The notes below the pieces were generated by a model, which was not told the DNA's origin, did no database searches, and saw nothing but the letters and a program-made list of their open reading frames with translations. From IMG/VR virus record IMGVR_UViG_3300010354_012181, positions 1-64,000 of that record: a stretch of DNA of 64,000 nucleotides; one strand, written 5' to 3'. The stretch comes from a virus. Below are positions 11,581 to 20,894 of the stretch, piece by piece (position 1 is the first letter of the stretch; every line of letters starts with the position of its first letter). A program made the position numbers and the translations under genes.

Positions 11581-12156
11581 ATGGAGCATCGGGTGAAAAA
11601 ATTAGAAGATTTCATAGCCGAAGATCGGATTGATCTCAAACTGCTTGAAAATAGCACACATTTTCTTAACGGAGAAATCGATGAAGATTCTGTAGGGGCA
11701 GCAGTAAAATGGTTGATCTACGAAAATCTCGATACTAGCAAAGAAAAGATCTTGACTCTGTACATTAACTCTACAGGAGGCGATTTGTATCAGGCATTTG
11801 GATTGATCGATATTATGCAGGCCAGTCCTCATGTGATTAGAACTATAGGTATAGGTGCAGTAATGAGTGCTGCCTTTTTAATTTTTGCATCGGGTGATCA
11901 CGGACAGAGATTAGCGGCTAAAAATACCAGTTTTATGTGTCATCAATTCAGCGAAGGTATAGATGCCAAATATCATGATATCAAGGCTACAATGAAAGAA
12001 AACGATCTGTGTAATGAAAGAATGATATTGCTGTTAAAAGAAGCCACTGGTCTTGCACCTAGTGTAATTAAAAAGAAATTACTACCAGCGTCAGATGTTT
12101 ATTTGACTGCAGAAGAGGTTGTCGATCTGGGAATAGCTGACAGCATCTTGGAGTGA
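11581..12156 (+). CDS. clpP: ClpP-family protease subunit
   Basis: LYINSTGG, AVMSAA (catalytic Ser), FMCHQ (His), YLTAEEVVDLGIAD. Confidence 0.85.
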   Translation: MEHRVKKLEDFIAEDRIDLKLLENSTHFLNGEIDEDSVGAAVKWLIYENLDTSKEKILTLYINSTGGDLYQAFGLIDIMQASPHVIRTIGIGAVMSAAFLIFASGDHGQRLAAKNTSFMCHQFSEGIDAKYHDIKATMKENDLCNERMILLLKEATGLAPSVIKKKLLPASDVYLTAEEVVDLGIADSILE

Positions 12157-12163
12157 GAACTTT

Positions 12164-12403
12164 ATGAATATAGTACCTATAGAATCGAAAGCTAAAAAAG
12201 AAGAAGAACGCAAAATAGCGATGTTAGATGTTTTAACTGTGATAAAAAAACAAATAGAAGATGGAAAAATTAAAGAATTCGTAGCCTGTTCGCTGAACGA
12301 TGAGGGAGATGCACAAATCCATGTCAGTTGTCTTGATCTTGTTGGCGGCGTAGGACTTTTCGAAGTTGGTAAACACTTACTTATTGAATTGGATCAATCG
12401 TAG
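12164..12403 (+). CDS. Hypothetical protein
   Basis: GGAG RBS; 79 aa. Confidence 0.7.
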   Translation: MNIVPIESKAKKEEERKIAMLDVLTVIKKQIEDGKIKEFVACSLNDEGDAQIHVSCLDLVGGVGLFEVGKHLLIELDQS

Positions 12404-12435
12404 CAAAAAAGCCACATTTATTGGCGAAAAAATTC

Positions 12436-12464
12436 TTGACAGATAAATAAACTGACAATATAAT
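12436..12464 (+). promoter_or_regulatory. sigma70-type promoter of the tRNA-array leader (TAAATA late-type motif inside the spacer)
   Basis: TTGACA 12436-41, 17 nt, TATAAT 12459-64; expected start site about 12471, coinciding with an ATG. Confidence 0.85.
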
Positions 12465-12470
12465 AATACT

Positions 12471-12578
12471 ATGATGAACAAACTTCATTCAATTATATCT
12501 AGCATTAAACAGATGGCCTATACATGGTCAGTACCCTGCTTTGGTCTAGAGAATGATCGTATGAGGGGTTCCGCATAG
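12471..12578 (+). CDS. Putative attenuator leader peptide containing all 20 amino acids
   Basis: MMNKLHSIISSIKQMAYTWSVPCFGLENDRMRGSA*; residues 12-30 are 19 different amino acids; last codons and stop overlap the antiterminator 5' arm. Confidence 0.8.
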   Translation: MMNKLHSIISSIKQMAYTWSVPCFGLENDRMRGSA

Positions 12579-12610
12579 TCTAATAAGAAACTAGATTTAT
12601 ACGGGACCCC
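12565..12610 (+). promoter_or_regulatory. Antiterminator hairpin
   Basis: GGGGTTCCG-CATAGTCTA pairs with TAGATTTATA-CGGGACCCC (about 17 bp) and sequesters the terminator 5' arm. Confidence 0.8.
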
Positions 12611-12640
12611 AGGATTAAAAACCCTGGGGTTTTTGTTTTT
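12605..12640 (+). terminator. Intrinsic terminator (attenuator)
   Basis: ACCCCAGG-loop-CCTGGGGT followed by TTTTGTTTTT. Confidence 0.9.
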
Positions 12641-12653
12641 ATAAAGGAAAAAA

Positions 12654-12833
12654 ATGCAAACAAAAGAAATAGATTACACAAAACTGAATGAACGCATCGT
12701 TGAACAGGCTTACGATTCTGCTTTCCGTATGACAGAAGAACAGACTCGCAAACTTATTCAAGATAAGTTTGAAAGAGCCAAAGCGATGAGTGACGCCATA
12801 AAGGCCAGTCCTGTGTGGCACACTGATCGATAA
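12654..12833 (+). CDS. 59 aa hypothetical protein, first gene after the attenuator (not in ORF track)
   Basis: AAGGA RBS; MQTKEIDYTKLNERIVEQAYDSAFRMTEEQTRKLIQDKFERAKAMSDAIKASPVWHTDR. Confidence 0.7.
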   Translation: MQTKEIDYTKLNERIVEQAYDSAFRMTEEQTRKLIQDKFERAKAMSDAIKASPVWHTDR

Positions 12834-12846
12834 TATTCAGTTATAA

Positions 12847-13067
12847 AGTGTGAATGGGAAACGAGGTCCCGGAGCGCACTCAAAACATGCTCCAAACGGG
12901 CGGACCTGAGGATGGAGTTCTTCTTGTAGAACAAAAAATTCAGGAGTAGTAAAGCATATTGGAGATAAGCTCGGTACTGTCTGCAGACGGAACGCCTCGC
13001 CCAGTATGCTTTACTACACACTCTCCACCTCCGCCTGCACAGCGGTTGACAGCATAGCGGGAGAGTG
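12847..13067 (+). ncRNA. Unidentified structured RNA
   Basis: GC-rich non-coding block; 17 bp stem 12946-62/13001-17, AGGTCC/GGACCT, GGAGCG/TGCTCC, CACTCTCC/GGAGAGTG. Confidence 0.55.
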
Positions 13068-13078
13068 ATAAAATTTTT

Positions 13079-13167
13079 GGATAGGTGCGCTGAATTGGTT
13101 GAAGGCAACGGACTGTAAATCCGCCACATAAGAAACATTGTAGGTTCGAATCCTACCCTATCCACCA
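13079..13167 (+). tRNA. trnY: tRNA-Tyr(GTA)
   Basis: Cloverleaf, loop CTGTAAA, GTTCGAATC, encoded CCA. Confidence 0.93.
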
Positions 13168-13174
13168 ATATTAT

Positions 13175-13203
13175 TTGACTTTTTTCTTTTTTGATGTTAT
13201 AAT
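13175..13203 (+). promoter_or_regulatory. sigma70-type promoter, leaderless transcript
   Basis: TTGACT-17-TATAAT; ATG 13210 lies 6 nt after the -10 box. Confidence 0.75.
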
Positions 13204-13209
13204 AACAAT

Positions 13210-13977
13210 ATGAAAATAAAAATTGCTCTTAGTTCGTTTTTGCTAACAGTATGTTTATCCGGATGCGGAGCCACTCTAACAGCCAAAGATGGCACAAAAA
13301 TGCCTGTGAGTGTTTCTGAGTATAGAGCATATAGAGATAAACCGGCACCAACAGTTTTAATTTCACATGGCAGCGACGGTGTTCAAAAACATCACGTAGA
13401 ATGGGCTAAAGAAATACAATCTTGGGGCTTCAATGCTGTGGTGATCGATCATTATTCCTTACGCGGAATATCAATGCACATAGGCATTGTGTTACCTAAT
13501 ATGAGAGGTGAACATAGGGCACGTGATATAGTGGAGGCAGGGAGATGGGCGAAATCTCAAACTTGGCATAAAGGCAAGATTTCTGTAATTGGCTTTAGTC
13601 AGGGAGGTAGCGGTGTAATGGCATTAGTAAATGGAAAAGACAGAGAGTACAATAAAATACTGTTAAAAGGTGAGGAGATGCCAATCGATTCGGCCGTAGC
13701 ATTTTATCCCGGTTGCAGTATAAGCTTTCCTCCGTTAACTCCTAGTATGCCAGTGCAGATGCATCTTGCAGGAGAAGATACTCTGGCTTTGACTAGTTAT
13801 TGCGAACCATTAACAGATAAAAATTATACGGTACATAGATACAATAATGCTACTCATGCCTTTGATGTATATTTAGGATCATTTAAACCTAAATTTTATC
13901 ATAGATATGATCCTAACATTACTGCCGTTGCCAAAAAAAATACCAGAGATTTTTTAGTAAAAAACTTAAAAGAATGA
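13210..13977 (+). CDS. Dienelactone hydrolase-family alpha/beta hydrolase, lipoprotein
   Basis: Lipobox LSGC; HGSDG, GFSQGG nucleophile elbow, FYPGC, ATHAFD. Confidence 0.85.
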   Translation: MKIKIALSSFLLTVCLSGCGATLTAKDGTKMPVSVSEYRAYRDKPAPTVLISHGSDGVQKHHVEWAKEIQSWGFNAVVIDHYSLRGISMHIGIVLPNMRGEHRARDIVEAGRWAKSQTWHKGKISVIGFSQGGSGVMALVNGKDREYNKILLKGEEMPIDSAVAFYPGCSISFPPLTPSMPVQMHLAGEDTLALTSYCEPLTDKNYTVHRYNNATHAFDVYLGSFKPKFYHRYDPNITAVAKKNTRDFLVKNLKE

Positions 13978-13979
13978 TC

Positions 13980-14120
13980 ATTTAGAAGTAGCACAGCTCG
14001 TGAGGCACCGATCAAGCCTAACCTTGTCCAAAGCGGAAAGCCTGTGATACTAGTAATGTCAGCCTATAAGGTTTGACACATCAGGTAGCAAGAGGATAGT
14101 AAACTGTGTTACTCCTAAAT
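13980..14120 (+). ncRNA. Unidentified structured RNA
   Basis: Closing stem TTTAGAAGTAGCACAG/CTGTGTTACTCCTAAA; internal TGTCAGCC/GGTTTGACA hairpin; ends immediately before tRNA-Asp. Confidence 0.55.
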
Positions 14121-14195
14121 GGTCCCATAATATATCGGTTAGTATACTGGCCTGTCACGCCGGAAGGATGGGTTCGACTCCCATTGGGACCGCCA
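14121..14195 (+). tRNA. trnD: tRNA-Asp(GTC)
   Basis: Cloverleaf, loop CTGTCAC, CCA. Confidence 0.93.
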
Positions 14196-14236
14196 AATTT
14201 TTTACATGACAAGTTTTTTCTGATAAGTAGATTTAC

Positions 14237-14312
14237 GCCGGTTTAGCACAGTGGTAGTTGCAATCGCCTTGTAAGCGATAGGTCGTCAGTTCGAATCCGA
14301 CAACCGGCACCA
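14237..14312 (+). tRNA. trnT: tRNA-Thr(TGT)
   Basis: Cloverleaf, loop CTTGTAA, CCA. Confidence 0.93.
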
Positions 14313-14318
14313 TTTTAA

Positions 14319-14394
14319 TGTCCTGTAGATCAGTCGGTAGATCAGCGGACTGTTAATCCGTGTGTCGGTGGTTCGAGCCCACCCAGGACAGCCA
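14319..14394 (+). tRNA. trnN: tRNA-Asn(GTT)
   Basis: Cloverleaf, loop CTGTTAA, CCA. Confidence 0.93.
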
Positions 14395-14410
14395 ATTTAT
14401 GGAGTGTTGT

Positions 14411-14563
14411 ATGCCGATGTATGAAACAACTGTAAGAACACCGCAAGGTGAAGAAAAGAAACGTGTTTACGCGAAAGACGTAAAAGAAGCAAAACAACTT
14501 TTCGAACAACTTTACGGTGGTCCTAGAGCAGTTCCTTATATACCGCACATAGTACCAAGTTAA
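14411..14563 (+). CDS. Small hypothetical protein within tRNA array
   Basis: GGAG RBS; MPMYETTVRTPQGEEKKRVYAK... Confidence 0.7.
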   Translation: MPMYETTVRTPQGEEKKRVYAKDVKEAKQLFEQLYGGPRAVPYIPHIVPS

Positions 14564-14565
14564 TT

Positions 14566-14639
14566 GGGGGATTAGTTAAATGGGATAACATCGGCTTTGC
14601 AAGCCGAGATTAACAGTTCGATTCTGTTATCCTCCACCA
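14566..14639 (+). tRNA. trnA: tRNA-Ala(TGC)
   Basis: Loop TTTGCAA; G3:U70 identity pair; CCA. Confidence 0.93.
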
Positions 14640-14654
14640 AGTTGTAAATTTTTT

Positions 14655-14733
14655 CCGGGTGTAGCTTAGTCTGGCTTAAAGCGCCTGCTTTGGGAGCAGG
14701 AGATCGTGAGTTCGAATCCCACTTCCCGGACCA
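14655..14733 (+). tRNA. trnP: tRNA-Pro(TGG)
   Basis: Loop TTTGGGA; CCA. Confidence 0.92.
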
Positions 14734-14738
14734 ATTTT

Positions 14739-14813
14739 GCATCGTTAGTTCAGCGGTAGAACGTCGCCCTTACAAGGCGAATGTCAGTGGTTCGACTCCA
14801 TTACGATGCACCA
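14739..14813 (+). tRNA. trnV: tRNA-Val(TAC)
   Basis: Loop CTTACAA; CCA. Confidence 0.93.
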
Positions 14814-14820
14814 TATAAAT

Positions 14821-14896
14821 ATCTCGCTAGTGTTTAACGGCAGCACGTCGGTCTCCAAAACCGAAAGACGGGGTTCAAATCCCTGGCGAGGTGCCA
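14821..14896 (+). tRNA. trnW: tRNA-Trp(CCA)
   Basis: Loop CTCCAAA; CCA. Confidence 0.92.
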
Positions 14897-14902
14897 AAAT
14901 TT

Positions 14903-14977
14903 GCTCGGTTCGTCTATCGGTTAGGACACCGCCCTTTCACGGCGGGAAGAGGGGTTCGATTCCCCTACCGAGTACCA
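14903..14977 (+). tRNA. trnE: tRNA-Glu(TTC)
   Basis: Loop CTTTCAC; CCA. Confidence 0.93.
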
Positions 14978-14982
14978 AATAT

Positions 14983-15056
14983 GCGGGATTAGTTTATTGG
15001 TAAAACAGAACCTTGCCAAGGTCCAGTGACCAGTTCGATTCTGGTATCCCGCTCCA
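14983..15056 (+). tRNA. trnG: tRNA-Gly(GCC)
   Basis: Loop TTGCCAA; U73; CCA. Confidence 0.9.
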
Positions 15057-15063
15057 AGTTTTT

Positions 15064-15163
15064 GCCTCTGTAGCTTAATCGGTAAAGAAGCGAGCTTATA
15101 CCTCGCCAAAGCACCGGCCAGATAAGCCGGCGTGTGCAGGTTCGAGTCCTGCCAGAGGCACCA
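15064..15163 (+). tRNA. trnI: tRNA with TAT anticodon (Ile, AUA) and a 29 nt variable arm
   Basis: GCGAG-CTTATAC-CTCGC anticodon arm; long variable hairpin CCGGC/GCCGG; canonical T arm; CCA. Confidence 0.8.
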
Positions 15164-15217
15164 ATATCATTATAAATTTAGTACAATTTATTTTAGGGTA
15201 AGTATTAGATATAAAAT

Positions 15218-15295
15218 GTGTCGGTGGCAGAGAGGCCCAATGCAAGAGTCTGCAAAACTCTAAAACCGTGAGTTCGAATCTCACCCGGCACTCCA
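15218..15295 (+). tRNA. trnC: tRNA-Cys(GCA)
   Basis: Loop CTGCAAA; U73; CCA. Confidence 0.92.
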
Positions 15296-15300
15296 ATATT

Positions 15301-15846
15301 ATGAAACAATTTAATTATAATCATCTTAATAATTTTATAGCAGGTTGGTATATTGACAATAATATTTGTGATGCTATAGTTTCTAAAGGAGAAGATAATT
15401 TATTATTATTTTCTGCAGGAATAAAAGAATATACAAACTGCGATTTAAAAAATTTTGACGTTATATTAAATGATTTATATTCTAACCAACTCACTAAAGT
15501 GTTGGAAGAATACAAAAAAATATATCCTTACTGCTTTAAAAATTTGAATACTTGGAAATTTACTCCGCCTCGAATTCAGAGATACGATCCAGGAAAATCA
15601 TACAGTGAAATTCATTGTGAAAATAACGGACAGACCTTGTATCAAACCAGGCACTTAGTTTACATGACGTATCTTAATGATATTACAAATGGTGGAGGTA
15701 CTGAATTCCCCTATCAAAATTTAACTACTCCTCCAGAAAAAGGTTTAACCTTAGTTTGGCCGGCGGGTTGGACACATCAACATCGTGGTATAGTTAGCAA
15801 TAAAGAAACAAAGTATATAATTACTGGTTGGTGCTGTTTTGATTAA
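15301..15846 (+). CDS. 2OG-Fe(II) oxygenase
   Basis: HCE (HxD/E), YLND..GGGTEF, WTHQHRG, KYIITGW. Confidence 0.88.
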   Translation: MKQFNYNHLNNFIAGWYIDNNICDAIVSKGEDNLLLFSAGIKEYTNCDLKNFDVILNDLYSNQLTKVLEEYKKIYPYCFKNLNTWKFTPPRIQRYDPGKSYSEIHCENNGQTLYQTRHLVYMTYLNDITNGGGTEFPYQNLTTPPEKGLTLVWPAGWTHQHRGIVSNKETKYIITGWCCFD

Positions 15847-15859
15847 ATCAATAATTTAG

Positions 15860-15941
15860 GCCCCTGTGGCGCAAAATACCGGGAAGACGCGACTGTTCAA
15901 GAGACAGTAATGTGCGGGTTCGAATCCCGTCAGGGGCACCA
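15860..15941 (+). tRNA. trnL: Atypical tRNA-Leu (AAG by position; CAA if shifted)
   Basis: Perfect acceptor and T arms, CCA; loop TCAAGAG lacks U33; short variable loop. Confidence 0.65.
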
Positions 15942-15947
15942 GTTTAC

Positions 15948-16035
15948 GGAAGTGTGGTCGAGTGGTCTATGGCACTGGTCTTGAAAACCAGCGATCTGAA
16001 AGGGTCCGTGAGTTCGAATCTCACCGCTTCCGCCA
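15948..16035 (+). tRNA. trnS: tRNA-Ser(TGA)
   Basis: Loop CTTGAAA, long variable arm, G73, CCA. Confidence 0.93.
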
Positions 16036-16044
16036 TTTTAGGAG

Positions 16045-16248
16045 ATGAATATGGAAGTTAACTCAGTGACTTATTACGGTTGGAGAGATAATCTACAAAC
16101 CGTAGAAAAACGCATCACCTATGATTATTCTAATGGTAATGATGTAACTGTAGTCGAACGTAGATCTTATCTTATAACTCTTTATGACGGAAGAGGTAAT
16201 GTAGATGTGTCTCAGAGCAAAGGTAACAATATTGATCAAATGGCCTGA
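16045..16248 (+). CDS. Small hypothetical protein within tRNA array
   Basis: AGGAG RBS; stop overlaps the 5' end of tRNA-Ile(GAT). Confidence 0.65.
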   Translation: MNMEVNSVTYYGWRDNLQTVEKRITYDYSNGNDVTVVERRSYLITLYDGRGNVDVSQSKGNNIDQMA

Positions 16249-16317
16249 TTAGCTCAGTGGTAGAGCATCGTCTTGATAAGGCGAGGGTCCGTGGATCGTT
16301 CCCACGATCAGGCACCA
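16243..16317 (+). tRNA. trnI: tRNA-Ile(GAT)
   Basis: Loop TTGATAA; variant T loop ATCGTTC; CCA. Confidence 0.88.
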
Positions 16318-16319
16318 AT

Positions 16320-16395
16320 GGGACGTTAGCTCAGTTGGTAGAGCAGCGGACTTTTAATCCGTTGGTCACTGGTTCGAATCCAGTACGTCCTACCA
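16320..16395 (+). tRNA. trnK: tRNA-Lys(TTT)
   Basis: Loop CTTTTAA; CCA. Confidence 0.95.
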
Positions 16396-16400
16396 TATTT

Positions 16401-16476
16401 GGTAACGTAGCATAGCGGCTAATGCGGCACCTTCATACGGTGTTTATCGTGAGTTCGAGTCTCACCGTTACTACCA
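16401..16476 (+). tRNA. trnM: tRNA with CAT anticodon (elongator Met or Ile2)
   Basis: Loop TTCATAC; CCA. Confidence 0.85.
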
Positions 16477-16482
16477 AACAAT

Positions 16483-16558
16483 TGGGGATTCGCCAAGTTG
16501 GTAAGGCATCGGATTTTGATTCCGACATTCGGTGGTTCGAGTCCATCATCCCCAGCCA
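16483..16558 (+). tRNA. trnQ: tRNA-Gln(TTG)
   Basis: Loop TTTTGAT; U1-A72; CCA. Confidence 0.93.
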
Positions 16559-16559
16559 A

Positions 16560-16636
16560 CGGTCCTTAACTCAATGGATTAGAGTGCCAGTCTTCGAAAC
16601 TGGAGGTTGGGGGTTCGAGTCCCTCAGGGCCGGCCA
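16560..16636 (+). tRNA. trnR: tRNA-Arg(TCG)
   Basis: Loop CTTCGAA; CCA. Confidence 0.9.
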
Positions 16637-16642
16637 TACAAT

Positions 16643-16716
16643 GGTGTTGTTAGTGTAGTGGTAACACGACTGTCTGTGAAACAGTAAACCAGGGTTCGAT
16701 TCCCGACTTCACCCCA
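16643..16716 (+). tRNA. trnH: tRNA-His(GTG)
   Basis: Loop CTGTGAA; G-1/C73; two T-T mismatches in the acceptor stem. Confidence 0.85.
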
Positions 16717-16720
16717 GTTA

Positions 16721-16793
16721 CCCGCTTTAGCTGATGTGGTCATAGCAACGGTTTGAAGAACCGTGGAACGTGGTTCGATCCCACGAGGCGGGA
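16721..16793 (+). tRNA. trnF: tRNA-Phe(GAA), no encoded CCA
   Basis: Loop TTGAAGA; acceptor CCCGCTT/AGGCGGG, then ACA instead of ACCA. Confidence 0.85.
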
Positions 16794-16795
16794 CA

Positions 16796-17707
16796 TTAAT
16801 TTATAAATTCTAGTCCTTTGAAATAATGTTGTCGATTAACCAATAATTCTAAAGGCTGCGTGTATTTTTTAACATAACCTATTACTATTTCTAAAGGCAT
16901 ATTTTTTGGGGAAAGATTAAAATTTTTACACCATGTTTCAAACTTCATTGAGGAATATAACTTTTTTCTATTCTCATTAGTGTCAAACACAAAACCACCA
17001 TGAGAACCAAATCTACCAGTGCAATCTATTTCCGTAGGATCATCGTTTTCATAAAATGATTGTAATGGTGGTTTACCAAGAATAGATCTATTTAAGAGAA
17101 CAAGATTTTTTTGATTATAATTAAAAAATTTATAATTAGAAAGCAAGTCTTCTGAATTAAAGGTTAACCAATTATCCCAAGTTATGGGCCTGATCTCAAA
17201 TGATGTTATAGGATAAAACGTATTGGTGAATATTTTATTTTCCGTTAAATTTGCCACGTGTTCAAGACTGTGAACATTATTATTTAGATTTTCTATTGAT
17301 TTTATGAAATCTTGTTTATCATAATCATTAATAATGTTAAAATTGCAATCAAACGGATTTGGTAAATTATGATAGGGATCTGAATCGATCCAAATCATGT
17401 TTTTTGTAAAAAATCTATGAATAAAATTAAGAGTCGATTGTTGAAAATCAAATGTAGGCGATAACTGAAATGGGATTTTAAATCCTTTATTTTCAAGGTT
17501 AATTAAACTCTTTAGAATTTCATTCCAGCAGGATTCAACATCTATATGATCTCGATAAGAGTGCGGGTGATAGCACCAATACTCATTTCTCATTGTGTAT
17601 GTTTCTTTTTTAGAAGAAAAAAAATCAAACCATTTTTGAATTAAAGATTCATCGAATAATTCAATAAGAACATAATTAGATTTTTGAAAAGTTAATAAAA
17701 GACGCAT
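16796..17707 (-). CDS. AT-rich hypothetical protein inserted antisense in the tRNA array
   Basis: 303 aa ORF; TAAATA 4 nt upstream of the ATG. Confidence 0.8.
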   Translation of the reverse strand: MRLLLTFQKSNYVLIELFDESLIQKWFDFFSSKKETYTMRNEYWCYHPHSYRDHIDVESCWNEILKSLINLENKGFKIPFQLSPTFDFQQSTLNFIHRFFTKNMIWIDSDPYHNLPNPFDCNFNIINDYDKQDFIKSIENLNNNVHSLEHVANLTENKIFTNTFYPITSFEIRPITWDNWLTFNSEDLLSNYKFFNYNQKNLVLLNRSILGKPPLQSFYENDDPTEIDCTGRFGSHGGFVFDTNENRKKLYSSMKFETWCKNFNLSPKNMPLEIVIGYVKKYTQPLELLVNRQHYFKGLEFIN

Positions 17708-17728
17708 AAAATATTTATAGGAGTAATT

Positions 17729-17923
17729 ATGAGACCAATCACTTTAAAAAATCGATTGAACAACGATCGTTTTATCTGCGACGATATAAAAATCACTGAA
17801 ATTATAGATGGTGTAGAATATCTTTTGGTTAAACGATTAGGTGAAAATAGAAAATTTTTGATGCGTAAAGAGGCATTAGAAAAGGTTGACACAGCGGAAA
17901 AAAAATCTTATAATAAGAAATGA
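17729..17923 (+). CDS. Small hypothetical protein
   Basis: AGGAG RBS. Confidence 0.7.
   Translation: MRPITLKNRLNNDRFICDDIKITEIIDGVEYLLVKRLGENRKFLMRKEALEKVDTAEKKSYNKK
17886..17914 (+). promoter_or_regulatory. sigma70-type promoter for the tRNA-Leu pair
   Basis: TTGACA-17-TATAAT. Confidence 0.8.
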
Positions 17924-17929
17924 TAGCAA

Positions 17930-18012
17930 GCCCCGATGGTGGAATGGTAGACACGCTGGTCTTAGAAGCCAGTGCCTAGTGCGTGAGAGTTCGAGTCTCT
18001 CTTGGGGCACCA
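17930..18012 (+). tRNA. trnL: tRNA-Leu(TAG)
   Basis: Loop CTTAGAA, long variable arm, CCA. Confidence 0.93.
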
Positions 18013-18017
18013 AATAT

Positions 18018-18102
18018 GCGACTGTGGTGAAATCGGTAGACACAAGAGACTTAAAATCTCTCGCTTTCGGGCGTGCCAGTTCGATTCTGGCCAGTCGCAC
18101 CA
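18018..18102 (+). tRNA. trnL: tRNA-Leu(TAA)
   Basis: Loop CTTAAAA, long variable arm, CCA. Confidence 0.93.
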
Positions 18103-18120
18103 TTATTGTAAATATTTGTT

Positions 18121-18603
18121 ATGAACAATTATTTAAATTATATTGATACACCCTCCCTGCCTGAATCGATAATCCAGGAGGTTTATAAAAGTACACAAAA
18201 TCCAAATATTTTTTACGTTCAAAAAAGTCAGAATGAATATGGATTATATGAAGCTACAGACTTATTAAAAGAGTATACTCATAAAATTTTCTCATTTCAA
18301 CATAAAACAAGAGTACAAAAAATATATAAAGACCTTTTCATTCATAAGGACTTTGAAAGGGGTTTAGCCTACAACTATCTGATAGATCTAGGTGGAGATA
18401 ATGTAGAAACTTGTTTTTTTGATAATGATTTTAAATTAGTTGAAACCCATGTGATTAAAAAACACGCATGGCATACTCTAGACGTAACAGTTTTTCATAG
18501 TGTAAAAAATGTTACTCACCCAAGATTGGCCATAACTCTTTTTCCTATCGACAGTAAAGTAAATTATTTTAAATTAGCAGATCAAAATTGGTGTAAAGAA
18601 TAG
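18121..18603 (+). CDS. Cupin/2OG-Fe(II)-like hypothetical protein
   Basis: HKD...WHTLDVTVFHSV...RLAITL pattern. Confidence 0.6.
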   Translation: MNNYLNYIDTPSLPESIIQEVYKSTQNPNIFYVQKSQNEYGLYEATDLLKEYTHKIFSFQHKTRVQKIYKDLFIHKDFERGLAYNYLIDLGGDNVETCFFDNDFKLVETHVIKKHAWHTLDVTVFHSVKNVTHPRLAITLFPIDSKVNYFKLADQNWCKE

Positions 18604-18647
18604 ATGTGTGTTCTATAAATTATTTGTATTAGGTTATAACTAAAAAT

Positions 18648-19271
18648 ATGTTGACTAACTTAGATAAGATTAAGTTCATTGGTGACCTTAGCCTCCAAGA
18701 TGCTGACATATTGGCTAAGTTTGGACGTCAATCAAAATCTATTATCGAATTTGGTTCAGGTGGTAGCACACAGATTTTTTCTCAGTGCGGATGTAATTCT
18801 GTAACTAGCATTGAAACTGATCCTAATTGGATAAATCTAACAAAAAAAAGACTAAGTCAATTGAATGAAGCGTCTGTTGTAGAATTTTTTTCCTATACCC
18901 ACTTAGACAAAATTATTTTTGGAAAACAATATGATCTTATTTTTGTAGATGGTGTAGATCATCTCCGCAGAGAATTTGCAATTACCACGTGGAAGTATCT
19001 ACAGGTAGGAGGGGTGATGATATTTCACGACACGAGACGTTTTAATGATTTTCAAAATGTTGCTTGGATAGCACAATTATACTTTAACGAAATAAATCGA
19101 ATAGATATAAATCTTGCAGCCAGCGATGGGATCAGTAGTAATATGACCGTCATCCACAAAAAAAGTTACGAGCCTTACCAAAACTGGAACCATACTGAAA
19201 ACAAACCTCTTTGGGCTTATGGTTCACAGCCCAATACTGAGGATATTCCATTATGGAGTCAGAACAGTTAA
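18648..19271 (+). CDS. Class I SAM-dependent methyltransferase
   Basis: IIEFGSGGST, YDLIFVDG, GGVMIFHD. Confidence 0.85.
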   Translation: MLTNLDKIKFIGDLSLQDADILAKFGRQSKSIIEFGSGGSTQIFSQCGCNSVTSIETDPNWINLTKKRLSQLNEASVVEFFSYTHLDKIIFGKQYDLIFVDGVDHLRREFAITTWKYLQVGGVMIFHDTRRFNDFQNVAWIAQLYFNEINRIDINLAASDGISSNMTVIHKKSYEPYQNWNHTENKPLWAYGSQPNTEDIPLWSQNS

Positions 19272-19277
19272 GTTTAT

Positions 19278-19367
19278 GGAGAGTTGGCCGAGTGGCTGAA
19301 GGCAGCGGCTTGCTAAGCCGTCCACGGGTTAAACCGTGCATAGGTTCGAATCCTATACTCTCCGCCA
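19278..19367 (+). tRNA. trnS: tRNA-Ser(GCT)
   Basis: Loop TTGCTAA, long variable arm, CCA. Confidence 0.93.
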
Positions 19368-19389
19368 AATTTTTAAAAAGGAAACATAT

Positions 19390-19566
19390 ATGTTGAAATC
19401 CGGATCGAATTATAAAATGACGAAACAATCAAAGCGTCTTTTAGCCACTAAGAAAATGATAGATGCTCATTATAGGGGAGAAATCAAAAGAACTGTAATT
19501 CAGGCGGAACTGGCCGCGGCAATCCAACCAAAAAGAGAAAAAGGTAAAAGAGAATCTTTGGAATAA
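19390..19566 (+). CDS. Small basic hypothetical protein
   Basis: AAGGA RBS before ATG 19390. Confidence 0.65.
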   Translation: MLKSGSNYKMTKQSKRLLATKKMIDAHYRGEIKRTVIQAELAAAIQPKREKGKRESLE

Positions 19567-19581
19567 CATAACCAAAATGTC

Positions 19582-19609
19582 TTGACACTGACATAAAATA
19601 GTGTATAAT
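19582..19609 (+). promoter_or_regulatory. sigma70-type promoter upstream of a non-coding block
   Basis: TTGACA-16-TATAAT. Confidence 0.7.
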
Positions 19610-19615
19610 AGTTTT

Positions 19616-19857
19616 TGTTCGGTAGCAATACTGAACCGGTGAAGTGAAAGGTAGATGAGGGTAGACGCTTGTATGGCTGAATGCCGTACATCCAATTCTG
19701 GCAAAGACTCTTGAAAAGTCTCCGTGCTTGGGTGAACCGATTCTTATATACCTGTCAATTGCTGATCGGAAATATTCAGGCCCCTGTAGCCTGTCTATTG
19801 CACGTTGTCAAGGATTAACTTTTAGTAAATCCGTTTGTCAATTGTCCGGTCTATTAC
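19616..19857 (+). ncRNA. Unidentified structured RNA with its own promoter
   Basis: Nested stems ACCGG/CCGGT, AGGTAGATGAGG/TCTTATATACCT, TGTATGGC/GCCGTACA, AGACT/AGTCT, GGATT/AATCC. Confidence 0.55.
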
Positions 19858-19886
19858 TTGACCTTTCGCCGACCCGTTAGTATAAT
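19858..19886 (+). promoter_or_regulatory. sigma70-type promoter
   Basis: TTGACC-17-TATAAT. Confidence 0.7.
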
Positions 19887-19905
19887 ATAAAAAAGAGAGA
19901 CACAA

Positions 19906-20478
19906 ATGAATATCACACTTCGCAAAGCAAACGCCATCCAGAACAGTATCAACGATGCAGTAAAGAATATCAAAGTTGAGTTAAATGTAGAACTCAACGA
20001 GTTCCAAAATGTTGAAGAAACAATCAGTCAGGCCAACAATGCGTTGATTGAGGCAGACGGCCGTCGTCAGAAGTTAACCATGGCTCTGTACAATATTCGA
20101 GCCCTTGTCGGAACTGCTAATTCTTCTAGCGGTATAGATACTGCTTTGGCTAAAGCAGCATTCGTAGACAAACGTATCGGTCAATTAGAAGAATTATCTC
20201 ACGCCAAGGAAATGACCGGCCTAGATGTAATTAAAGGAAAACTAGAAAAAATAAAAAGTCTTAAGGACGAGGCTAGGAGTAGAGTATTTGGTTATGGTGA
20301 TACCGTCACAACTTCTGTTCTTAGCAAAGAACAGATTTCACAGGCTAAAACAGAAGTTCTTAACCTTAAAAAACAAAAACAAAAACTTAACGATGAGATT
20401 CTGGAGTTGAATATTAAAACTGAAATTCCCCTCAGCGATGATGTAGTTAAAACATTACAGTCTGAAGGGTTATTGTAA
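19906..20478 (+). CDS. Coiled-coil hypothetical phage protein
   Basis: 190 aa, heptad-rich helical sequence. Confidence 0.8.
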   Translation: MNITLRKANAIQNSINDAVKNIKVELNVELNEFQNVEETISQANNALIEADGRRQKLTMALYNIRALVGTANSSSGIDTALAKAAFVDKRIGQLEELSHAKEMTGLDVIKGKLEKIKSLKDEARSRVFGYGDTVTTSVLSKEQISQAKTEVLNLKKQKQKLNDEILELNIKTEIPLSDDVVKTLQSEGLL

Positions 20479-20485
20479 AATCTAT

Positions 20486-20559
20486 CGCGGGATAGAGAAA
20501 TGGTATCTCGAGAGTCTCATAAGCTCTAGTTCCTGGTTCAATTCCGGGTCCCGCAACCA
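20486..20559 (+). tRNA. trnM: tRNA-Met(CAT), initiator-like
   Basis: C1xA72 mismatch, CGCGGG acceptor, loop CTCATAA; lacks the three G-C anticodon pairs. Confidence 0.88.
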
Positions 20560-20561
20560 TT

Positions 20562-20801
20562 TATTGATAGTAGTATAAGATCCGATTCGGAAACCGAAAG
20601 GTAAAACTTAGCGGGTGGAACTGCGAGGTAGATGTATCGTAGATACATTTCGATTCTCATATATGATCCAGGGCGTTTTACAGCGTGACCAGATTGAGGG
20701 ATACGGATTCCATGTTAGGCTGGACTATAGAAGCAGGTGCTGTAATGCCTGGGCGGCCCCGGGTTTCGTCCCAAACCAAAACTTCAATATTACTATCAAT
20801 A
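20562..20801 (+). ncRNA. Unidentified structured RNA between two tRNAs
   Basis: 15 bp closing stem TATTGATAGTAGTAT/ATATTACTATCAATA; internal CCAGGGCGTTTTACAGC/GCTGTAATGCCTGG and GATGTATC/GATACATT. Confidence 0.6.
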
Positions 20802-20820
20802 TTCTTATAAGTAGAATTAT

Positions 20821-20894
20821 GCGGGGTTCGTATAGTGGTAATACCTCAGCCTTCCAAGCTGATGCGGAGAGTTCGATTCTCTTACCCCGCTCCA
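20821..20894 (+). tRNA. trnG: tRNA-Gly(TCC)
   Basis: Loop CTTCCAA; U73; CCA. Confidence 0.94.

Follow-up and report, generated by a model that had tools for sequence, protein, structure and literature searches.

The virus record IMGVR_UViG_3300010354_012181 of IMG/VR was found to carry, in the stretch analysed here (positions 1 to 64,000 of the record, 64,000 nucleotides (nt) in all, referred to as the window), a short leader open reading frame (ORF) that encodes all 20 amino acids and is followed on the same strand by a putative transcription switch, a small ORF, a structured RNA and an array of transfer RNA (tRNA) genes (Table 1). Translation of the ORF at 12471-12578 (+) gives the peptide MMNKLHSIISSIKQMAYTWSVPCFGLENDRMRGSA, in which His, the one amino acid missing from a run of 19 consecutive different residues, is encoded by codon 6. 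The leader ATG lies 6 nt beyond the end of the -10 hexamer of a promoter with a perfect sigma-70 consensus, and from this spacing the leader start appears to be leaderless. The stop codon, TAG at 12576-12578, is located just beyond the 5' arm of a predicted antiterminator. Promoter, ORF and run had been pointed out in an original prediction made from the letters of the window, and consensus scoring and translation agreed with it, and every coordinate that it gave was correct.

Table 1 Features of the leader, the putative switch and the downstream genes in the window, with strand and evidence (aa, amino acid residues).
Feature	Position	Strand	Evidence
Sigma-70-type promoter, TTGACA-17 nt-TATAAT	12436-12464	+	12/12 consensus match
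Leader ORF, 35 codons, all 20 amino acids	12471-12578	+	Translation
Run of 19 consecutive different residues, codons 12-30	12504-12560	+	Translation
Antiterminator outer 5' arm, GGGGUUCCG	12565-12573	+	Predicted fold; covariance alignment
Antiterminator inner hairpin	12575-12600	+	Predicted fold; compensatory changes at every inner-helix pair in relatives
Antiterminator outer 3' arm, CGGGACCCC, overlapping terminator 5' arm	12602-12610	+	Predicted fold; covariance alignment
Intrinsic terminator, stem 12603-12613/12623-12633, 9-nt A-rich loop, U tract to 12640	12603-12640	+	-17.1 kcal/mol
59-aa ORF with ribosome-binding site, first gene after the terminator	12654-12833	+	ORF reading
Conserved structured RNA, between switch and first tRNA	12844-13045	+	Motif in 104/110 elements; RNAalifold
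Second promoter, 11/12, directly before tRNA-Tyr	13046-13074	+	Consensus scoring
tRNA array, 26 genes, all 20 amino acids, broken by ORFs and further promoters	13079-20894	+	ARAGORN and Rfam

Folding predicted both of the competing conformers, antiterminator and terminator, that had been proposed for the RNA from the end of the leader onwards. In the one, GGGGTTCCG (12565-12573) pairs with CGGGACCCC (12602-12610) and encloses the inner hairpin; in the other, ACCCCAGG (12606-12613) pairs with CCTGGGGT (12623-12630) and is followed by TTTTTGTTTTT. ACCCC is common to the 9-bp 3' arm of the antiterminator and the terminator stem, and the fold of the terminator has a z-score of -3.2 relative to shuffled sequences. 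A search of Rfam (E-value up to 1; gathering threshold) returned nothing at 12436-12640, T-box included, and only tRNA matches passed.

The probability that a random 35-mer contains all 20 residues is about 0.003 with phage composition and 0.01 with uniform composition; one complete ORF in a very large scan would not be remarkable alone, and it is the comparison of relatives that decides. Searching viral contigs with the downstream 59-aa ORF gave 36 loci, and a degenerate terminator pattern gave at least 119 further stretches. Deduplication left 110 distinct elements with enough upstream sequence, and further members exist; those with less than 230 nt upstream (L067, L088, L125, L137, L146 and L152) were left out of the leader counts. 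The leader was taken as the longest ATG-started ORF whose stop lies no more than 100 nt upstream of the terminator, a rule that is blind to composition.

The leader ORF is kept in 110/110 elements despite a length range of 35-74 codons, and its translation gives 109 unique peptides, 35-74 aa long with a median of 47. Of these, 99 contain the full set of 20 amino acids, nine contain 19 and one contains 18; in four leaders an upstream ATG extends the N-terminus, and the shorter forms that begin at the internal start are complete as well. The complete alphabet was found in only 21 of 1567 control ORFs (35-51 aa, six frames, same loci), and the simulated probability of all 20 residues was 0.002-0.06. 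If residues were drawn at the frequencies of the family itself, 284.7 peptide-by-residue cells should be empty, and 11 were. The median pairwise identity of the leaders is 0.39, and among the representatives of the 35 clusters formed at 60% identity 29 are complete, the remaining six having 19 residues. No codon runs occur for any amino acid, and Cys, Trp, His and Tyr are mostly single copies.

Cys is present once in 94/109 leaders, yet it is spread over 22 alignment columns; the other rare residues occupy 13 (His), 10 (Tyr) and 8 columns (Phe), while Trp and Asp are almost fixed in place. Pro and Glu differ in position, and Lys is lost, between the window and L036, which is its nearest compact relative. 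That the single Cys occupies so many different columns shows that selection acts on completeness itself; under such selection a residue would be expected to vanish from one site while being kept at another, which is not how a folded micropeptide would behave. As judged from the aligned peptides, the comparison presented here shows a complete amino acid set that is maintained by selection. The expectation that homologues would keep composition and covarying stems while residue order varies, set as a test by the original prediction, was borne out by the number of complete leaders, the wandering Cys and the antiterminator described below. As for the run of 19 different residues, to which the prediction had drawn attention, it is real in the window but is not the conserved trait, which is completeness: all-different runs in the relatives reach 9-16 only. 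In six frames of 1.41 Mb (window and fetched loci, 2.66 million codon positions), a stop-free all-different run of 18 or 19 occurs in the window leader only, and the runners-up are two of 17.

Folding gave a three-tier hairpin for 30/30 sequences of the first set, its outer 3' arm doubling as the 5' arm of the terminator, and a covariance model of the antiterminator had exactly one sense-strand match per source in 100/100 sources. Its outer helix is 99.1% paired in 98 distinct sequences, as aligned by fitting to the covariance model, which favours structure. The first pair of this helix is G-C in 53 sequences, A-U in 35 and G-U in 5, and its 3' base also pairs with an invariant G of the terminator, as C-G or U-G. 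Double-sided changes were found at 17 of the 21 antiterminator pairs, and the covariation score was 0.312, against 0.157 for shuffles (0/500 reach the observed value) and 0.04-0.09 with slid partners. Across relatives the terminator is 99.7% paired, a near-invariance that is partly built in, as most sequences were recruited by the terminator pattern; its stems have energies of -15 to -24 kcal/mol and are followed by a U tract. In the terminator loop (AUUAAAAAC or ACUAAACAC) and in the spacer AAACUUCAA the sequence itself is kept, beyond mere pairing. A small covarying hairpin was also read from the sequences within the ORF of relatives.

The stop codon of the leader begins 10-28 nt after the start of the antiterminator 5' arm in 100/100 leaders, with a median of 22 and a value of 10 in the window. 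In 85/100 leaders no residue type is still missing from the set when the arm begins; the type that appears last is usually Glu, and the median distance from this last newcomer to the arm is 11 nt, which is about where the leading edge of a stalled ribosome would lie, given the size of its footprint.

Upstream of the leader, a promoter with at least 10 of 12 consensus matches lies within 110 nt of the ATG in 108/110 elements, and 102 of these score 11 or 12. The -10 hexamer ends no more than 12 nt from the ATG in 24 elements, the window included, and at least 40 nt from it in 79; the long-spacing members of the first set have a 5' hairpin and a distant Shine-Dalgarno-like motif. In relatives with a long 5' untranslated region (L002, L003, L010 and similar) this hairpin, which is small and conserved, for example GACAGC...GCTGTC or CTAGC...GCTAG, stands right after the promoter, about 45-60 nt before the ATG, and it is not present in the window. 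Downstream, same-strand tRNA genes follow in 87/87 elements with at least 1.5 kb of flank and opposite-strand ones in none; the first tRNA is met a median of 428 nt after the terminator, and the median number within 4 kb is 17. No promoter scoring 11/12 or more lies between the terminator and the first tRNA in 73/99 elements.

ARAGORN disclosed 24 tRNAs for all 20 amino acids at 13079-20894 of the window, and Rfam added two that ARAGORN missed (15064-15160 and 15860-15938, 58.3 and 44.3 bits). The leader had been placed at the head of a complete tRNA array; the array does lie downstream and covers all 20 amino acids, but the 59-aa ORF, the structured RNA of about 200 nt and the 11/12 promoter intervene before tRNA-Tyr. 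For the structured RNA, RNAalifold predicted 36 pairs from 14 sequences, 24 of them with compensatory changes, and homologues are found in L002-L036; 12844-13045 is without a match in Rfam. Its long stem carries a GCTTTAATACACAC-like sequence that we take to resemble the boxA of rrn and lambda, and the RNA might help polymerase to cross the untranslated array.

From this arrangement we infer that the leader is translated, in which direction the switch is thrown and what triggers it. We consider it fairly probable that the element is a ribosome-coupled transcription attenuator, which would sense a shortage of any aminoacyl-tRNA and gate the structured RNA and the tRNA array. Host RNA polymerase would start at the consensus promoter and a ribosome would translate the short leader. 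With all aminoacyl-tRNAs present, the ribosome would keep up, enter the 5' arm of the antiterminator and halt at the stop codon 10-28 nt inside the hairpin; its presence on the 5' arm would free the 3' arm (GGACCCC) for the terminator, and transcription would end at about 12640. A delay in decoding any leader codon ahead of the arm would leave the 5' arm free to pair with the 3' arm; the terminator would be blocked, and polymerase would go on to transcribe the small ORF, the structured RNA and the tRNA genes. In minimum-energy folds of full-length leaders the antiterminator was present in 68/109 and the terminator in 41/109, these folds being disturbed by an artefact, the pairing of the U tract with A-rich 5' ends; the larger share suggests a switch that would be on by default and turned off by efficient translation.

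The signal is best understood as a shortage of functional tRNA, because the regulated genes are tRNAs and extra tRNA cannot relieve amino acid starvation. Such a shortage could arise from a mismatch with the host pool or from cleavage by host anticodon nucleases. The phage thus probably transcribes more of its own tRNAs when any codon is decoded slowly. We lean, if only slightly, towards the stronger version of this proposal, in which giant freshwater phages have a dedicated sensor of all aminoacyl-tRNAs, a leader peptide in which selection preserves each of the 20 amino acids, often by way of wobble-read codons, and their tRNA operon and structured RNA are transcribed only when decoding falters, for instance after cuts by an anticodon nuclease.

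Several observations weigh against an attenuator that senses every amino acid. Ten of the 109 leaders are incomplete, and the relatives are akin and come mostly from freshwater viromes, so that the counts are not fully independent. Fifteen of 100 leaders have a residue type (Val, Asp, Gly or Cys) with no codon ahead of the 5' arm; a stall within or past the arm should not free the antiterminator, and the simple model leaves these leaders unexplained. In the window, Asp, Glu and Arg are confined to the last five codons before the arm or later; Arg is the last residue type to appear, and sensing of at least this residue is doubtful, because codon 30 starts 8 nt before the arm. The original prediction had itself raised a caveat on stalls at the last few codons. 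No clear or conserved 1:2 anti-antiterminator was seen in the full-length folds, which leaves the default state uncertain. The stretch W...NDRTPE, with fixed GAT, CCA and GAG codons, is strongly conserved, and a pure composition model fails to explain it. Many relatives have a Shine-Dalgarno-like motif at a distance of 11-13 nt from the ATG and the window is seemingly leaderless, which bears on translation efficiency.

Last among these points, 26/99 elements, namely the window and 25 of the 98 relatives, have a strong promoter that stands after the terminator and ahead of the first tRNA. It is possible that the promoter at 13046-13074 lets tRNA transcription bypass the switch. By its position, the switch of the window would surely govern the structured RNA and the 59-aa ORF, but tRNA transcription would depend on it only in part. 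A bypass from an internal promoter at 13175-13203 had been foreseen; that promoter exists (11/12), in addition to the one at 13046-13074.

The strong terminator can also be read differently, with a unit that mainly makes a stable trans-acting small RNA or a micropeptide, a terminator that is essentially constitutive and tRNAs driven from elsewhere or by basal read-through. The window's own promoter before tRNA-Tyr and the conserved W...NDRTPE motif fit this explanation, and rnTrpL and peTrpL, as described in the available parts of PMC6614838 and PMC7968998, are a trans-acting RNA and peptide derived from an attenuator. The terminator piece (12604-12638) of relatives also occurs in contigs from four metatranscriptome runs of three studies, and one contig covers 12513-12639 and extends 13 nt further; these contigs give no strand, ends or levels, and this point cannot be ranked. 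Constitutive termination would leave no role for a covarying antiterminator that competes with the terminator, 73/99 elements are without another near-consensus promoter before the first tRNA, and a folded or binding micropeptide would not shift its sole Cys over 22 positions, so that we find this explanation rather unlikely. It is quite improbable, too, that the element is a general sensor of translation activity (ribosome availability, initiation or global elongation rate), for which single residues would go unsensed and the full alphabet would be a by-product or serve another purpose. Such a sensor needs no complete alphabet, yet completeness is conserved, and sensing through a single codon was shown by experiment for the upstream ORF (uORF) of whiB7, according to the available part of PMC10274678. 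Its geometry would nevertheless be identical to that of the attenuator, single codons stall more weakly than classical codon runs, and, with the antiterminator favoured in 68/109 folds of naked RNA, any loss of translation would give read-through.

The sequence conservation of terminator loop and spacer, the lack of a clear anti-antiterminator and the 15/100 leaders with a residue type placed where stalls should not act would all suit a switch set by a phage or host factor, protein or RNA, that binds the conserved loop or spacer, the ORF being translated without sensing. We give this little credence, as it leaves unexplained both the complete set with its positional turnover and the constant placement of the stop codon inside the antiterminator; no candidate factor is linked to the element, and the downstream small ORF is missing from some relatives.

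The ribosome-coupled attenuator that we prefer has counterparts among the enterobacterial leader-peptide attenuators, which include trpL, hisL, pheL and leuL and the multivalent thrL and ilvL. As in these, a promoter-proximal short ORF, a terminator whose 5' arm is common to an upstream, competing and here covarying antiterminator, and a stop codon placed for masking were found. Classical leaders hold runs of one to three cognate amino acids and have biosynthetic enzymes as targets, whereas the phage leader, in which no enrichment of cognate codons was found, has about one codon per rare residue and all 20 overall, and would control tRNA genes and a structured RNA in a virus; leader-peptide attenuation of amino acid operons is treated in PMC1183508 and PMC3082878, of which parts were available for comparison. 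Unlike the classical attenuators, the phage element showed no conserved 1:2 anti-antiterminator in the folds. T-box riboswitches have no ORF and directly bind one uncharged tRNA by means of a specifier codon. Their likeness to the phage element is that tRNA status is coupled to read-through of a terminator (PMC2879506, available in part).

The original prediction had stated that no system like this was described, which was too strong, as many amino acids are sensed through single codons by the uORF attenuator of whiB7 (wblC) in mycobacteria and other Actinobacteria. In the available part of PMC10274678, the amino acid make-up of this uORF sets the deprivations that are sensed, stalling leads to antitermination, and whiB7 is activated by perturbations tied to 18 of the 20 amino acids; removal of the sole Trp codon strongly cut the response to Trp deprivation, so that one Trp codon suffices. 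The same part of that source gives the M. smegmatis uORF as holding all residues except Cys and the M. tuberculosis uORF as being without several. By that account, the whiB7 uORF differs from the phage leader in being Ala-enriched and incomplete, with completeness not conserved, and in controlling a transcription factor that serves drug resistance and the supply of alanine. It is moreover bacterial and not viral, and is related to the phage element neither in sequence nor in structure; Ala makes up 5% of the residues of the phage family, tRNAs lie downstream, and the carrier is a phage of freshwater bacteria.

Phage tRNAs have been reported as a counter to tRNA-targeting defences (PMC11555353), which gives a rationale for extra tRNA; the available part of that work describes a role of tRNAs and no transcription sensor. 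No account of a complete-alphabet leader or of an attenuator of phage tRNA genes was found in the literature covered, supplementary files and subscription journals lying outside that coverage. Attenuators of this general class are well established, and in concept the whiB7 uORF is in part a forerunner; new are the conservation of a full alphabet, tRNA genes as the target and the occurrence in a virus.

If the proposal is true, the element would be the first leader-peptide attenuator known for tRNA genes and the first in a virus, and it would be an example from nature of selection for a complete amino acid alphabet in one peptide. Leader-peptide attenuation would then extend from one or a few amino acids to the whole alphabet. 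Why phages carry large tRNA sets and how these are controlled is an open field, and the element would show on-demand tRNA expression in at least one large lineage; with the ribosome as reporter on the whole tRNA pool, phage tRNAs would be tied to translation stress and to host defences that target tRNA. As a compact natural part of about 170 nt it should report any aminoacyl-tRNA shortage, and use as a biosensor is conceivable. As promoter and terminator conform to common bacterial types, the idea lends itself to direct tests in laboratory strains.

Codon usage of the leaders was analysed as well. The possibility that leader codons mirror the anticodons of the array as a family trait was rejected: in the 31 loci whose arrays offer 18 or more anticodons, 450 of 1365 leader codons (33.0%) had an exactly matching Watson-Crick anticodon of the phage, and 40.9% was expected from synonymous usage. 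For nine two-codon amino acids, wobble-read codons account for 67.2% of 1554 leader codons and for 49.7% in long ORFs. The preference is marked for GAT (99%), TAT (94%), TTT (91%), CAT (87%) and GAG (89%, against 19% in long ORFs), and is absent for Cys and Lys. Wobble-read codons could raise the sensitivity of the sensor, a lead that is confounded by shared ancestry and RNA constraints.

The source record has 72,449 bases and an estimated completeness of 21%, from which a genome of roughly 350 kb follows. A protein of the record shares 45% identity with one from Methylophilales phage Melnitz and 35.5% with one from Pelagibacter phage HTVC008M. A 684-aa protein encoded at 2006-4060 matches phrog_35576, and its relatives in Melnitz and HTVC008M are annotated with an adenylate/guanylate cyclase domain. 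The DNA sequencing runs in which the stretch occurs carry the labels of freshwater, aquatic and aquaculture metagenomes. Among cultured phages, a DNA search with window positions 12100-13300 gave similarities at tRNA-Tyr only, and tblastn with the 59-aa protein gave nothing, so that no cultured carrier of the element was found in that collection. A 6.2-kb contig (L157, 5650-6223) in a Polynucleobacter metagenome-assembled genome holds a complete-alphabet leader, the switch, the structured RNA and tRNA-Tyr; being short and binned, and possibly mis-binned, it is a weak hint at Polynucleobacter as host.

The 59-aa ORF belongs to no family in Pfam or PHROG. Its own family is variable, with the common core ...EQ.RKLI..KFERA..., and the small-ORF motif matches 28/110 elements, an undercount as diverged ORFs escape it. 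In the 13 loci that were read, some have a diverged small ORF and others none, in which case the terminator abuts the structured RNA. Between tRNA-Tyr and the remaining array of the window is inserted a 255-aa ORF (13210-13977) of the dienelactone hydrolase family (E-value 2.4e-9), with a lipoprotein-like N-terminus and its own 11/12 promoter at 13175-13203. In relatives, ARAGORN gave tRNA-Ile(tat) genes of 90-95 nt, unusually long for Ile.

No transfer-messenger RNA (tmRNA) was found in the window by ARAGORN or Rfam. A permuted tmRNA gene lies 2-3 kb upstream of the leader in three relatives (L008 43-441, L017 896-1312 and L031 627-1058), and a Clp-protease-family ORF (11581-12156, E-value 1.2e-30) stands just upstream of the window leader. 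Genes for ribosome rescue and for degradation of tagged products thus adjoin the putative stall sensor.

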